DNA of 14,459 bases from Candidatus Krumholzibacteriia bacterium (GCA_036478295.1 JAZGDW010000315.1:1-14459), one strand, 5' to 3'. Shown: positions 1,073-7,266, numbered from the stretch's first letter. A program made the numbers and translations. Notes: generated by a model not told the origin, from the letters alone.

Positions 1073-1090
1073 TGTCAAATAAATTTGACA
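1073..1090. promoter_or_regulatory. Palindromic operator/enhancer (UAS) 1a, TGTCAAATAAATTTGACA
   Basis: 8-bp perfect inverted arms; the identical 18-mer recurs at 1717 and 1806; upstream of a sigma54 promoter. Confidence 0.8.
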
Positions 1091-1163
1091 CTCGGCGTCG
1101 AGTAAACGTCAGGCCTGTATTTGGTTGAGATTTAACGCGTTATCCACATCGCCCGACGCTGGG

Positions 1164-1181
1164 TGTCAACTCCGTTTGACA
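1164..1181. promoter_or_regulatory. Palindromic operator/enhancer (UAS) 1b, TGTCAACTCCGTTTGACA
   Basis: Same TGTCAA-N6-TTGACA consensus; 91 bp after site 1a and 124 bp before the TGG of sigma54 promoter 1. Confidence 0.75.
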
Positions 1182-1287
1182 CTCGTGCGGACTTTTTGAG
1201 ACCCGTACGCGAAGCGACAAGGAACAACGCTCCATTAACCTCCCGTGTCGTAATCAATTAGGAGTTTTCCGTCACAATGCGGCACGA

Positions 1288-1302
1288 TGGTACACCACTT
1301 GC
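1288..1302 (+). promoter_or_regulatory. Sigma54 (RpoN) -24/-12 promoter 1, TGGTACACCACTTGC
   Basis: Matches TGGCAC-N5-TTGC (one mismatch) with exact GG-N10-GC spacing; paralogous copy at 1929. Confidence 0.8.
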
Positions 1303-1374
1303 CATAACACGCTACCAAGAAAGCGGCTCCCGAAGGTTGGGAGAGAGATCAAACCCTCGGAGGAGGTGTCCAAA

Positions 1375-1464
1375 ATGAAGTATATCATCATGTCAAATCT
1401 CGGACTGCTCGTTACACTGCTGGCCTTCTTCGGCAAAAGCGTCTGGGGCAAGAGCGTTTGGTAG
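1375..1464 (+). CDS. Small hydrophobic peptide 1, 29 aa: MKYIIMSNLGLLVTLLAFFGKSVWGKSVW
   Basis: Strong SD AGGAGGTG at 1361-1368, ATG at 1375, TAG at 1462-1464. Shares 17/24 aa with the paralog at 2033, with conservative and synonymous changes. Flanked by a promoter and a terminator. Too short for the ORF track. Confidence 0.85.
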   Translation: MKYIIMSNLGLLVTLLAFFGKSVWGKSVW

Positions 1465-1484
1465 GATGCCGGAAAGCGCAAGAG

Positions 1485-1514
1485 AAGAGCCTGCATGCTG
1501 CAGGCTCTTTTTTT
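1485..1514 (+). terminator. Intrinsic terminator after peptide 1
   Basis: AAGAGCCTGCA-TGC-TGCAGGCTCTT 11-bp stem running into a T7 tract (1508-1514). Confidence 0.85.
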
Positions 1515-1716
1515 GATCATGATCGACTGGTCGTCACGGCCGATCCGGAGGATTGCCCGGGGTTGCGGCGTGGATGCCCATAATCAACTTCGATAGGCCT
1601 CACCCGGGCCTGGAGCGTGGGTGCCTGGCCCCGGCCGGGTCGCGGCCTCGCGCCTCGCCCGCCGACCTCGGGCCCAGGGGCAGGTAACTGTATCAGCGCC
1701 AGGCCAGGTGAGGGAG

Positions 1717-1734
1717 TGTCAAATAAATTTGACA
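1717..1734. promoter_or_regulatory. Palindromic operator/enhancer (UAS) 2a, TGTCAAATAAATTTGACA
   Basis: Identical to 1073-1090. Confidence 0.8.
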
Positions 1735-1805
1735 CTTTATGTCCAATAAACAATACATGTTAACTATCTATATTTCATATAGTTATATATATAGACAACA
1801 TTTAC

Positions 1806-1823
1806 TGTCAAATAAATTTGACA
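1806..1823. promoter_or_regulatory. Palindromic operator/enhancer (UAS) 2b, TGTCAAATAAATTTGACA
   Basis: Identical 18-mer; 89 bp after site 2a and 123 bp before the TGG of sigma54 promoter 2. Confidence 0.8.
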
Positions 1824-1928
1824 CTTCCGACTTGCAAACTGGACATTCTGTGCTATTAAAAGAAGGACCTGGGAAGCAACGTCTTTTATGAGAAGTGATT
1901 AGGAACTTCAAGGCGTTCCCGGGATTCT

Positions 1929-1943
1929 TGGTACACGGCTTGC
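1929..1943 (+). promoter_or_regulatory. Sigma54 (RpoN) -24/-12 promoter 2, TGGTACACGGCTTGC
   Basis: GG-N10-GC; differs from promoter 1 at only 2 spacer positions. Confidence 0.8.
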
Positions 1944-2032
1944 CCTTACAGGGAGGCGTGAGTAGCGGAGCAAAGCGTACTCATTTGTTGATGGAACGCA
2001 GCGAACACTCAGACAGACGGGAGGTGGTTGAG

Positions 2033-2113
2033 ATGAAGTATATCATCTTCGCCAACATAGGATTGCTCGTCTCGATCCTAGCGGTCTTGGGAAAGAGCGT
2101 TTGGATTGCGTGA
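2033..2113 (+). CDS. Small hydrophobic peptide 2, 26 aa: MKYIIFANIGLLVSILAVLGKSVWIA
   Basis: SD GGGAGGTG at 2019-2026, ATG at 2033. It is the 3' end of track ORF 1895..2113 and a paralog of peptide 1. Confidence 0.85.
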   Translation: MKYIIFANIGLLVSILAVLGKSVWIA

Positions 2114-2119
2114 GTTAAC

Positions 2120-2153
2120 AAAAAAGAGCCTGCCCTGCGCAGGCTCTATTTTT
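2120..2153 (+). terminator. Intrinsic terminator after peptide 2 (possibly leaky)
   Basis: AGAGCCTGC-CCTGC-GCAGGCTCT 9-bp stem (same stem sequence as terminator 1), followed by ATTTTT and preceded by an A-run. Confidence 0.7.
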
Positions 2154-2182
2154 GGGTGCATGACACGCCCGGGAGACACACC

Positions 2183-3823
2183 ATGGCGAACCACAGCAAG
2201 AAGGAACAGGGGCGAACGCCAGACGCAGCGAGGGTGTTCGCGGAGATCGACAAGCACGTCGGTCCGCCGCCTGGGCCGGCCGAGCGCGAGCCCGGTATAA
2301 AAGACCTCAAGCGGCGTTACTCGATCATCGAGACCCTTCTCAACGTCAGCACCTCCATCAATTCCACGATGAATCTCGGCGAGCTGCTGGAGAAAATCGT
2401 CGACGCGGTCGTGAAGATTACCGACTGCAGCCGGGGTTACCTCATGCTGCGACACAACGGCGAGCTCACCCTGAGCCTGGCGCGATCCCGGCACGGCAAG
2501 CCGATGTCACACAAGAACTTCGACCGCAGTCTCAGCGTCATCCAGAACGCTGCCGAGACCGGCCTGCCGCAGGTGGTCACCAACGCCCAGGAAGAAGACG
2601 ACCTTCGTGACAAGAAGAGTATCGTCGAGCTGGACATCAAGACGGTCATCTGCATTCCCCTCCAGTTCGAAGAGAACCTCGTCGGCGTAATCTACGCGGA
2701 CAGCGACCGCATATCAGAGACGTTCAGCCAGGCGGATCTCTCGATATTGAACGCCTTTGGCGCGCAGGCGGCGGTGGCGATCGAGAATACGCGTCGCCAT
2801 GGCGATCTCGAGATGTTGAAGAACGCGCTGGAAACCCAGAACGTGAGCTTGCGCCAGGAAGTCGCCGGCAACTACGAATTCGCCGGCATCATCGGTCGCA
2901 GCCGTGCGATGAAGGAGACATTCGAGGTCATCAAGAAGGTCGCGCCGCTGTCGACGACCGTCCTCATCCAGGGCGAAACCGGTACGGGCAAGGAACTGAT
3001 CGCCAAGGCGATCCACTACAACAGCGCCCGAAAAGAACGGCCCCTGGTGTCGATAAACTGCGGTGCGCTGCCGAAGGACATTCTGGAGAGCGAGCTTTTC
3101 GGCTACCGCAAGGGGGCGTTTACCGGTGCAGACCAGGACCGGGCGGGCCTGTTCGAGGCGGCCAACGGCGGCACCATCTTTCTGGATGAAATAGGCGACA
3201 TGCCGATCGAGCTGCAGGTCAAGCTTCTCCGTACGCTGCAGGAAAACGAGGTGCGGCGCCTCGGTGATGACCGCGTGATCCAGATCGACGTGCGGGTTAT
3301 CGCCGCCACCAACAAGGACCTGGCCCTCGAGGTCGAAAAAGGGAGGTTCCGGGACGACCTGTTCTACCGGCTCAACGTGGTGCCGATCCACCTGGCCCCG
3401 CTGCGAGATCGTCCGGAAGATGTCCTGCCGCTCGTCGACCATTTCCTCGAGAAATATTGCCGCGAGATGAAGAAAGAAAAGCCGCTGCTGACGCGGGTGG
3501 CGAAGGAGATGCTGTTGTATCACTCCTGGTCCGGCAACGTGCGGGAGCTCGAGAATTCGATCGAACGTGCCCTCGCCCTCGGTGAAGACAAAAAGGTTAT
3601 CGACGTCGATCAGTTCGAGCACCTGATCAAGACGGCCACGGTCGGCGGAACGGACGAAACGGTGTCCCTGAAGAAAATGCTCGACGTGTGGGAAAAAGAA
3701 CTCCTGCAGAAGATGCTGGTCAAACACTCCTGGAATATCTCTCACACGGCGCTCGCCCTTAACCTGAGCAGACAGCAGCTCTACAACAAGATTAAGCGAT
3801 TCGGGCTGGCGCCGCTCATCTAG
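2183..3823 (+). CDS. Sigma54-dependent transcriptional activator (bEBP), GAF-AAA+-Fis-type HTH, NifA/FhlA-like architecture
   Basis: GAF region ([20 protein letters not shown]...QAAVAIEN), Walker [21 protein letters not shown] loop, Walker [30 protein letters not shown] and a C-terminal HTH ([23 protein letters not shown]). ATG 2183 with SD GGGAG is preferred over GTG 2156. Confidence 0.95.
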
Positions 3824-3828
3824 ACACT

Positions 3829-4053
3829 CCGCCTCGCGGGGGCGTCTGTTGGATTGTCTCCCTCGCCGCGCTCCGCTTCGCTCGGCTACCCCGCTACGCG
3901 GGGTGATCCTCGCTCGCTCGCGCGACGGCTCTGTCAACAGCCCAACAGACGCCCCCTCGCTCGCTCCCGCGACGGGTCCGTCAACAGCCCAACTGGCGCA
4001 CCGCCACTCATCCCCGCATGGGGCTCCGTCAACAAACCAACAGGCGCCCCCCC
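3829..4053 (+). repeat. Structured REP/REPIN-like intergenic repeat, copy A
   Basis: An ~85-bp core (ttgtctccctcgccgcgctccgcttcgctcggctaccccgc...ggggtgatcctcgctcg...gtcaaca) is shared with copies B and C. It is enclosed by a perfect 15-bp inverted repeat (3838-3852/3942-3956), with GTCAACA sub-repeats at 3933, 3980 and 4028. Confidence 0.8.
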
Positions 4054-4183
4054 AATTCATTCCCGCGCTCGAACGCTGTCCGTGGCGTATACCGTTGAGA
4101 TTTGGTAGACTCCTCTCTCGGCACCGGGAAGGGAATTCCAGAAAAGATTGATCCATCGTTCGTCCCGAAAGGAGCAACACCTC

Positions 4184-6136: not shown

Positions 6137-6147
6137 GCGGCGTACGG

Positions 6148-6390
6148 GTTACGACGGTGCGCTGTCGAATTGTCTCCTGACCCGCGCTCCGCTTCGCTCG
6201 GATATCCCGCTTCGCGGGGGCGCGTGTTGGGTTGTCTCCCTCGCCGCGCTCCACTTCGCTCGGCTACCCCGCTGCGCGGGGTGATCCTCGCTCGTTCCCG
6301 CAACGGCTCTGTCAACAACCCAACACACGCCCCCTCAATTCGTTTCCCGCATGGGGCTCTGTCAACAATCCACCCGTGCGCCGCCGTAAC
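6148..6390 (+). repeat. Structured REP/REPIN-like intergenic repeat, copy B
   Basis: Same core as copy A; inner 20-bp inverted repeat 6216-6235/6315-6334 (1 mismatch); imperfect outer arms gttacgacggtgcgc...gtgcgccgccgtaac. Confidence 0.8.
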
Positions 6391-6473
6391 TTGTTTGCAA
6401 CGGGTCGGGCGTGACAAACTGTGCTACGCTATAGATGGCCTGCGACAGACGTTTACCCACAAGGGCGTGGGTC

Positions 6474-7022
6474 ATGAAAAAAGCACTGTTATTGACGGTC
6501 GTGTTCACGCTGTGGGCGACCATGGTTCTTGGCCAGGCGGGGATTATTTCGATATTCGCTGACGTGACGGGCAACAACTGCAATCTGGTGGACACAAACA
6601 ATCCCAACCACTTTTACCTGGTACACACGATCACGCCGGGTGCGATGGCGATCCTGTTTCAGGCGTCGTTGCCCGCCTGCTATCCAGGCATCTGGCTCTC
6701 GGACCTCCAGCCCTTCGCCGTCACGGTCGGCGACTCGCAAGCCGGCGTTGCCGTTGCGTATGGCTCATGTCTGGCGGCGCCAATCCACGTTCTGACGGTG
6801 GTCGCGTTTGGCGGCGGTACCCCGGCCTGCTGCGTGTACCCGATTACCCCGCACCCCGATTCTGCCTCGGGAACGATCGAAGTGACTGATTGCTCATTCG
6901 AGGACCATGCCGGAGTTCCCAGTTACAACGGGATTATAAACAGCAACGCGACGTGCGTGTGTGGCGACCATCCGGTCGAAGAGACCACCTGGGGCCGAGT
7001 AAAATCGCTGTACGGTGACTAG
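6474..7022 (+). CDS. Secreted Cys-rich hypothetical protein with C-terminal TWGxxKxLY motif
   Basis: Signal peptide MKKALLLTVVFTLWATMVLG, 8 Cys, ends PVEETTWGRVKSLYGD. ATG 6474 is preferred over 6435 because it gives a canonical signal peptide. Confidence 0.85.
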   Translation: MKKALLLTVVFTLWATMVLGQAGIISIFADVTGNNCNLVDTNNPNHFYLVHTITPGAMAILFQASLPACYPGIWLSDLQPFAVTVGDSQAGVAVAYGSCLAAPIHVLTVVAFGGGTPACCVYPITPHPDSASGTIEVTDCSFEDHAGVPSYNGIINSNATCVCGDHPVEETTWGRVKSLYGD

Positions 7023-7051
7023 CGTTCCGCTGTTGCATCATCCGGGACAAA

Positions 7052-7266
7052 AGGGGGGCGCCAGTTGGGTTGTTGACAGAGCCCCATGTGGGCATGAGGG
7101 GCGGTGTGTGGCTAGGTTGGTGACGGAGCCGTTGCGGGAACGAGCGAGGATCACCCCGCGCAGCGGGGTAGCCGAGCGAAGTGGAGCACGGCGACGGAGG
7201 CAACCTAGCCACGCACCGCCCCGAGCTGCAGGTGGAGCGCGGGTCAGGAGACAATCCACCCGTGCG
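7052..7266 (-). repeat. Structured REP/REPIN-like intergenic repeat, copy C (inverted), between convergent genes
   Basis: Reverse complement of the A/B core; 22-bp inverted repeat 7098-7119/7201-7222 (1 mismatch, G-U compatible). Confidence 0.8.

Follow-up and report, generated by a model that had tools for sequence, protein, structure and literature searches.

Why would a bacterium equip two genes for peptides of under 30 amino acids (aa) with enhancer sites, a sigma54 promoter and a terminator of their own, right in front of a gene for a sigma54 activator? The question is raised by a stretch of 14,459 nucleotides from a Candidatus Krumholzibacteriia bacterium (GCA_036478295.1, JAZGDW010000315.1:1-14459), in the following called the window. 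The two genes, P1 and P2, together with the activator gene make up what we call the cassette. It represents a sigma54-wired micro-peptide system which is real, conserved and undescribed. With respect to its function the balance of the sequence evidence tips slightly toward one reading: the partner peptide of a MASE9 sensor domain would have been relocated, expanded by repeats and given its own activator, and would act in trans on the sensor. New, then, is a MASE9-type micro-gene in a free-standing, sigma54-wired form.

The source genome (G000; 3.52 Mb, 91% complete) was compared with 208 genomes of the phylum in families f1 through f9, the relatives being titled Krumholzibacteriia; the sample of the order comprises 36 genomes. 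Families f1, f2, f5, f8 and f9 bear the cassette; f3, f6 and f7 are sister families without it.

Two micro-genes with transcription signals of their own

An earlier note, made from the window alone, had described two mini transcription units, each with palindromes, a sigma54 promoter, a Shine-Dalgarno sequence (SD), a peptide gene and a terminator. Every element was found in place (Table 1). The conserved geometry which the note had claimed was borne out by measurement: enhancer sites are 91 bp (unit 1) and 89 bp (unit 2) apart, and the proximal sites lie 124 and 123 bp before the promoters. The degenerate site at 1740-1757 is a third enhancer site of unit 2, additional to that description. 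The exact 18-bp palindrome occurs six times in the 3.52-Mb genome, four copies being at this locus, and a reversed-pattern control yielded none; thus, the palindromes at the locus are not due to chance. As the note had also stated, a GAF-AAA+-HTH (helix-turn-helix) activator starts just after the second terminator. Its ATG at 2183 is located 28 nt past the second U-tract, and profiles matched a GAF domain (residues 64-202), a sigma54 AAA+ domain (236-403) and HTH_8 (504-540). The candidate housekeeping-type promoter of unit 2 can be made out in 6 of the 8 unit-2 regions that were aligned; a consensus scan did not call it.

P1 has a basic N-terminus and a hydrophobic stretch followed by two GKSVW repeats which end in a C-terminal tryptophan carboxylate. 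Compared with a genome of the same genus P1 shows seven synonymous and two conservative changes, P2 four synonymous and one conservative change. Across 30 sequences the proportions of synonymous (pS) and nonsynonymous differences (pN) are 0.65 and 0.23 for codons 2-24, and 0.56 and 0.07 for the GKSxW codons. Judged by these substitutions P1 and P2 are genuine genes under coding selection and presumably translated into micro-proteins; they are tiny genes absent from annotation. The two-unit layout is restricted to part of family f1. In one f1 genome P2 is frameshifted, and at another locus (L022) unit 2 still possesses enhancer and promoter, but peptide and terminator have been lost, so that it runs directly into the activator.

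Table 1. Features of the locus, numbered from the first nucleotide of the window.
Feature	Coordinates	Strand	Basis or remark
Big_1 lipoprotein, divergent, truncated by contig end	1..896	-	context
Unit 1 distal enhancer site, TGT-N12-ACA palindrome	1073..1090	.	sequence; equivalent about 190-231 bp 5' of promoter in many orthologues
Unit 1 proximal enhancer site	1164..1181	.	124 bp before promoter
Unit 1 sigma54 -24/-12 promoter, TGG-N8-TTGC	1288..1302	+	motif; rpoN in genome
P1 Shine-Dalgarno sequence	1359..1367	+	sequence; conserved in orthologues
P1 open reading frame (ORF), 29 aa	1375..1464	+	ends GKSVW-GKSVW; same-genus comparison
Unit 1 intrinsic terminator hairpin	1479..1515	+	fold z -3.8 for 1440-1520
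Unit 2 distal enhancer pair	1717..1757	.	perfect site 1717-1734, degenerate site 1740-1757
Unit 2 proximal enhancer site	1806..1823	.	123 bp before promoter
Possible housekeeping-type promoter, TTGCAA ... TGCTAT, inferred	1832..1858	+	abuts unit 2 proximal site
Unit 2 sigma54 -24/-12 promoter, TGG-N8-TTGC	1929..1943	+	motif
AGCGGAGC leader motif	1964..1977	+	common to leaders of MASE9-linked micro-genes
P2 ORF, 26-aa P1 paralogue	2033..2113	+	one GKSVW, then IA; SD 2019-2025
Unit 2 intrinsic terminator hairpin	2120..2154	+	fold z only -1.3 for 2085-2190
GAF-AAA+-HTH sigma54 activator	2183..3823	+	ATG start; GAFTGA intact

The activator and its probable targets

The activator has the make-up of a GAF-type sigma54 enhancer-binding protein: a GAF domain, an AAA+ domain with Walker A and GAFTGA motifs, and a Fis-type HTH. 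It remains below every NCBIfam equivalog cut-off (NifA, NorR, FhlA, PrsR), the best being NifA with 381 of 529 bits. Orthologues are present in 27 of the 36 genomes of the order (E under 1e-120). A profile of the GAF domain sets apart 77 orthologues (at least 197 bits; next 146), solely in the five cassette-bearing families. The HTH recognition helix is conserved, RQ(Q/H)LHNKIK being common to the activators of f5, f8 and f9. In a tree of AAA+ domains (63 rows) the activator group received support of 95/69 with one f4 protein inside. A bacterial enhancer-binding protein (bEBP) adjacent to purM in sister families was considered as the same activator, an idea to which the tree gave no support. 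The genome has rpoN on contig C267, and 13 bEBP-like ORFs were found there by motif.

Which genes does this activator serve? A promoter was detected in 29 of 32 units, and under a lenient rule all 29 have an enhancer site 123-127 bp 5'. The strict enhancer-promoter pattern, scanned genome-wide as the note had suggested, matched 24 times in 21 of the 36 genomes of the order; all 24 matches are at the cassette, with none in the reversed control. With a promoter matrix built without G000 the cassette promoters ranked first (scores 49 and 40; next 29 and 15). The peptide genes of f5, f8 and f9 still have enhancer sites, at distances of about 136, 198 and 220 bp on the 5' side, and all six pattern matches there, in five genomes, are at peptide genes (control 0). 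The note's proposal that the activator binds the palindromes, with micro-peptides as output, is thus supported comparatively by fixed geometry, a conserved helix and exclusive pattern. Because of the fixed geometry and the exclusive occurrence of the pattern, binding to the palindromes and activation of the -24/-12 promoters are strongly implied. The detectable regulon would consist of these peptide genes only; via unit 2 the activator possibly controls its own gene, too.

Lone palindromes on contigs C59, C96, C28 and C100 of G000, and at eight loci in three relatives, are without a peptide unit. In one relative a perfect enhancer copy is located 172 bp before the sigma54 promoter of a membrane GAF protein (L076:1485-2673, G001:C79), which may there be an additional member of the regulon. 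The third-ranked candidate in G000 (G000:C218:13260, minus strand; L080; score 29, spacing 130) is beside another bEBP gene and probably is that protein's own target.

Distribution and form of the peptides

The peptide profile matches 71 of the 208 genomes: 10 of 12 in f1 plus G000, 20 of 23 in f2, 35 of 43 in f5, 1 of 1 in f8 and 4 of 8 in f9; there were no matches in 120 genomes of f3, f4, f6 and f7. Peptide and activator occur together in 65 genomes; six have the peptide alone and 12 the activator alone. This co-occurrence is not independent evidence because it concerns one clade. A search of relatives for synteny, proposed in the note, placed the peptide gene directly 5' of the activator at 26 of 27 orthologue loci; the 27th starts at a contig edge. 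The adjacency holds within the order and fails in the other families, where the genes are unlinked: the peptide gene of f5, f8 and f9 is a free-standing unit, no bEBP is present in the 20 regions fetched, and in G076 and G107 the gene is >1 Mb from the activator.

Pfam, NCBIfam and Rfam hold no match for the peptides or their RNA, and the ESM Atlas no usable match. A profile search of 1.84 billion representatives returned 48 matches, 46 short peptides of the family and two unrelated repeats. A DNA-pattern scan of a species collection yielded 21 loci; all those with a taxon name are titled Krumholzibacteriia or Latescibacteria, the rest being 'uncultured bacterium'. The repeats, when sought among longer proteins, gave one unnamed 135-aa match and no protease with repeats, which is weak evidence.

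The peptides carry one to six pentapeptide repeats, with GNSTW copies added in one f2 genus. Means of hydropathy over 17 residues reach 2.1 and 2.5. At the lone peptide genes of f5, f8 and f9 (L085-L104) a UbiA-family gene is next in 17 of 20 and a rhomboid protease gene is found in 15 of 20; the two products may be processing enzymes. Genomes of f2 and some of f1 have a divergent M16 peptidase pair instead. Two identical lone peptide units 16 kb apart (L089, L090; G092:C5) reflect a recent duplication or an assembly artefact.

Could the ORFs be attenuator leaders with Trp codons, or the RNA the active product, so that cis control of the activator gene is what matters? The end of unit 2 only 28 nt before the activator, the invariant Trp codons and complementary arms which flank the micro-ORF of sister families would fit. 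We consider this very unlikely. Unit 1 has a terminator at its end, the gene is unlinked from the activator in f5, f8 and f9, and residues, not codons, are conserved in GKSxW. Further, no Rfam family comes near its cut-off (best Thr_leader, 22 of 55 bits), and the 5' part folds no better than shuffles.

Even less credit, indeed hardly any, can be given to a ribosomally synthesised and post-translationally modified peptide (RiPP), in which the W-G-K / S-x-W repeats would be cores for an enzyme that crosslinks or prenylates Trp; darobactin and ComX are the models. A Trp-containing pentapeptide in up to six copies and the UbiA-family gene after the peptide gene in 17 of 20 f5/f9 loci fetched are what such a precursor would predict. 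Yet the f1/f2 cassette has neither a modifying enzyme nor an exporter as a conserved neighbour, no modifying enzyme is common to the f1/f2 and f5/f9 neighbourhoods, and the N-terminal part, a hydrophobic helix, is an atypical leader.

The proposed link to a MASE9-HD-GYP phosphodiesterase

Clustering of neighbourhoods revealed a gene for a MASE9-HD-GYP phosphodiesterase. In f1/f2 it is located a few kb 5' of the cassette, in f5/f9 close to the activator; the activator is near the MASE9-purM operon in both clades. The phosphodiesterase gene is present in 143 of 208 genomes. In a genome of the same genus a single contig carries MASE9, purM, the lipoprotein with Big_1, a pair of M16 genes and the cassette, and in relatives the Big_1 lipoprotein is between the cassette and the purM / MASE9-HD-GYP operon. 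The copy of G000 (G000:C76:13305-14606) is near a contig end, followed by purM and a repeat. Its PF20972 score is 21 bits (40.6 bits in L108); the HD-GYP motifs are intact.

In the sister families 61 genomes gave a match, and 36 loci from among them were examined; at 35 of these an SD-led ORF of 11-20 codons is positioned just 5' of the MASE9 gene. All 35 micro-peptides end in W, which was the selection criterion; K is at position -4 in 32, R in 2 and H in 1. The register of this K-x-x-W is that of GKSVW. By comparison, in the cassette-bearing families a micro-gene directly before MASE9 was found at 0 of 33 loci examined. Of 19 leaders from the sister families 17 contain the motif AGCG(G/A)AG, and so do 14 of 32 leaders from the cassette; shuffle means are 0.8 and 1.3, with a maximum of 4. 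Cassette peptides share with the MASE9-linked micro-peptides hydrophobicity, a Trp at or near the C-terminus and a AGCGGAGC-type leader. From this we infer that the two kinds of peptides are homologous, and MASE9 has somewhat more than an even chance of being the target of P1 and P2.

The same association was seen outside this genome set. Among HD-GYP loci from metagenomes and plasmids (78 of 83 parsable), 12 have a MASE region of at least 24 bits; upstream of 8 of these, Natranaerobius and Nonomuraea among them, there is a hydrophobic micro-ORF with a Trp close to its end. Two loci were intermediate. Of the other HD-GYP loci, 2 of 64 have a Trp-ending micro-ORF, neither of which is hydrophobic; many of these controls are without upstream sequence. 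Family f4 shows no MASE9 protein (0/7; 0/5), peptide or enhancer-promoter, the Pfam model being weak on this clade. PF17248 (the DUF5317 partner gene) has no match in G000 at its 91% completeness.

In many f5/f9 copies of MASE9 a sigma54-like promoter takes the micro-gene's place, at 7 of 11 and 3 of 3 loci in two sets; the promoters seen in these leaders (L176-L178, L292-L302) are of the form TGGCA-N6-CTGC. This suggests that receptor and peptide may both be sigma54-dependent there. In the sister families (L159-L174, L263-L282) the micro-ORF is enclosed by complementary CCGG-type arms and follows two or three AGCGGAGC repeats, which suggests a structured leader.

Across phyla a protein of about 240 aa without Pfam match precedes the unit of micro-gene and MASE9 (L175:8395-9132, on G000:C76; L180:3813-4478; L182, L184, L185, L194, L207). 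Its predicted model has a LeuA/CMS regulatory-domain fold at the C-terminus; an amino acid may thus be its ligand, and the protein may be part of the module. The protein encoded at L191:2483-7283, directly before a MASE-like sensor, is large and secreted and has DGR-type pentapeptide repeats close to the C-terminus.

Proposed mechanism and alternatives

We propose the following course of events. The ancestor of the class would have had a K-x-x-W micro-peptide co-transcribed with a MASE9 phosphodiesterase. In the ancestor of two orders the gene would have left the MASE9 leader, its hydrophobic part lengthened and the terminal pentapeptide multiplied, and it would have come under a dedicated GAF activator. 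Today P1 and P2 would each be translated from a separate sigma54-dependent transcript, controlled by the neighbouring activator; the hydrophobic peptide would enter the inner membrane, where the GKSVW end may engage the MASE9 domain and tune the breakdown of cyclic di-GMP (c-di-GMP). Given its own terminator and the distant location in f5/f9, the peptide can only act in trans. The sign of its effect on the sensor is speculative, as is a feedback of c-di-GMP on the activator. A membrane-held modulator, favoured by hydropathy and by the 11-14 aa peptides of sister families, is somewhat preferred over a released pentapeptide, for which the exact repeats speak.

Several points weigh against a MASE9 target. 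The counts of 35/36 and 0/33 are not that many independent tests because they probably reflect one evolutionary event. The case for homology comes down to a pair of residues, hydrophobicity and a motif of 7 bases. In this assembly the cassette and MASE9 fall on separate contigs, no overlap of C76 with the cassette contig having been found. Among the genomes with an activator and no peptide match (12) three are at least 90% complete, and six genomes show the reverse. Outside the phylum the upstream peptides of two MASE9-type loci (L182, L218), read by eye, are without Trp, and one f6 locus (L161) has kept MASE9 with no micro-gene. The predicted model of the activator's GAF resembles generic GAF domains at 12-20% identity, and the comparison indicates no ligand. 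A complex prediction for MASE9 residues 1-232 with P1 (score 0.20, mark 0.32), in which controls were not folded, was used neither way.

The micro-proteins may have another membrane target, their likeness to the MASE9 leader genes being convergence. Cassette peptides are longer than those of the sister families (26-59 vs 11-20 aa) and repeated, and the argument from distribution amounts to one lineage split. Since loss of the leader gene, gain of a peptide in the same register and a shared motif must then coincide, we regard convergence as improbable.

A different partner would be the activator itself: the peptide or an excised GKSVW fragment could be the ligand of the activator's own GAF domain in an autoinduction or feedback switch similar to Phr/AimP, without involvement of MASE9. 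The co-occurrence in 65 genomes, the adjacency in the order, peptide genes as the only detected targets, and the promoter of unit 2 which at L022 feeds the activator directly are in line with such a switch. It does not account, however, for the way in which cassette and MASE9 leader gene exclude each other among the families, or for the motif common to both leaders, and K-x-x-W peptides occur in families without this GAF activator. A loop with its own signal as sole output has no evident purpose. On the whole we consider it unlikely.

The action of P1 and P2 on MASE9 can also be read more boldly, as cell-to-cell signaling in a diderm phylum, and we attach only a low probability to this version. 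The precursor would be cut into several GKSVW or GNSTW pentapeptides; once outside, these would be sensed by the MASE9 phosphodiesterase in neighbouring cells. The ensuing change in c-di-GMP would act on the GAF activator, which would drive more peptide from the sigma54 promoter and close an autoinduction loop. P2 with its one repeat would be an attenuated or antagonistic variant.

Comparison with known systems

The Phr, PapR and AimP pheromones of RRNPP systems have a signal-like hydrophobic N-terminal part followed by a short, sometimes repeated, C-terminal pentapeptide, and in this the cassette peptides resemble them. In contrast, no RRNPP/TPR receptor adjoins the cassette, the adjacent activator having a GAF and no TPR domain; the host is diderm, and TPR-type bEBPs flank the activator only in f5/f9. 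At 11-14 aa, the shortest peptides of the sister families leave no room for a Sec signal. In those f5/f9 loci (L139-L158) the GAF activator has as neighbours two bEBPs of the TPR type and a small secreted protein, which ends in a DPGEDPH motif (L142, L143, L148); this protein and the TPR-type bEBPs are possibly a separate peptide-receptor pair.

LuxO-Qrr and CbrB-CrcZ are examples of bEBPs with a small regulator as output. With NifA, NorR and FhlA the activator shares the GAF-AAA+-HTH layout and TGT-N12-ACA enhancers about 100-200 bp upstream. The cassette differs from all of these in that its output is a peptide gene, not a small RNA or a metabolic operon.

As far as the accessible part of PMC2789325 goes, MgrB-PhoQ feedback is similar insofar as the gene for a very small membrane protein is transcribed under a regulator, and this protein is proposed to act on a sensor in the membrane. 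The cassette peptides have no sequence relation to MgrB, their proposed target is a c-di-GMP phosphodiesterase, not a kinase, and they are set apart by sigma54/bEBP control, a repeated C-terminal pentapeptide and the existence of two paralogues.

The proposed target is a MASE9-HD-GYP phosphodiesterase such as TM1467 of Thermotoga or HdgA of Streptomyces. The available portion of Galperin and Chou (bioRxiv 10.1101/2021.11.05.467447) treats MASE9 as a sensor with a ligand probably bound within the membrane and names none. Neither there nor in the available text on HdgA (PMC6205966), from which 'peptide' and 'small protein' are absent, is a ligand or partner peptide described. The note had recognised no named family with this layout; likewise, none emerged from Pfam, NCBIfam, Rfam or the literature searched, which left out the majority of subscription journals and of bioRxiv supplements (Figure S5 of the MASE9 paper among the latter).

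Other features of the window

REP-like intergenic repeats are present at 3830-4060, 6140-6330 and 6930-7250. Their 12-base core has 45 copies in the genome and is also found at the end of contig C76; it may therefore explain the assembly break. A secreted protein without Pfam match (6435-7022) ends in a TWGxVKSLY-type motif, which we take to be a C-terminal sorting signal of the phylum.

Significance

MASE9 is a widespread sensor domain without known signal, and the peptides offer a candidate input. As long as a micro-gene is part of the MASE9 leader, a cis-acting upstream ORF and a peptide ligand are indistinguishable. The present lineage is a natural experiment: the gene is free-standing, has its own promoter, enhancer and terminator, and its K-x-x-W end is under strong selection; hence the peptide itself must act in trans. 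Exact, short and synthesisable candidate ligands, the GKSVW repeats, can thereby be named together with a putative cognate receptor. At the same time a sigma54 activator is apparently devoted to genes for fewer than 30 aa which annotation has overlooked.

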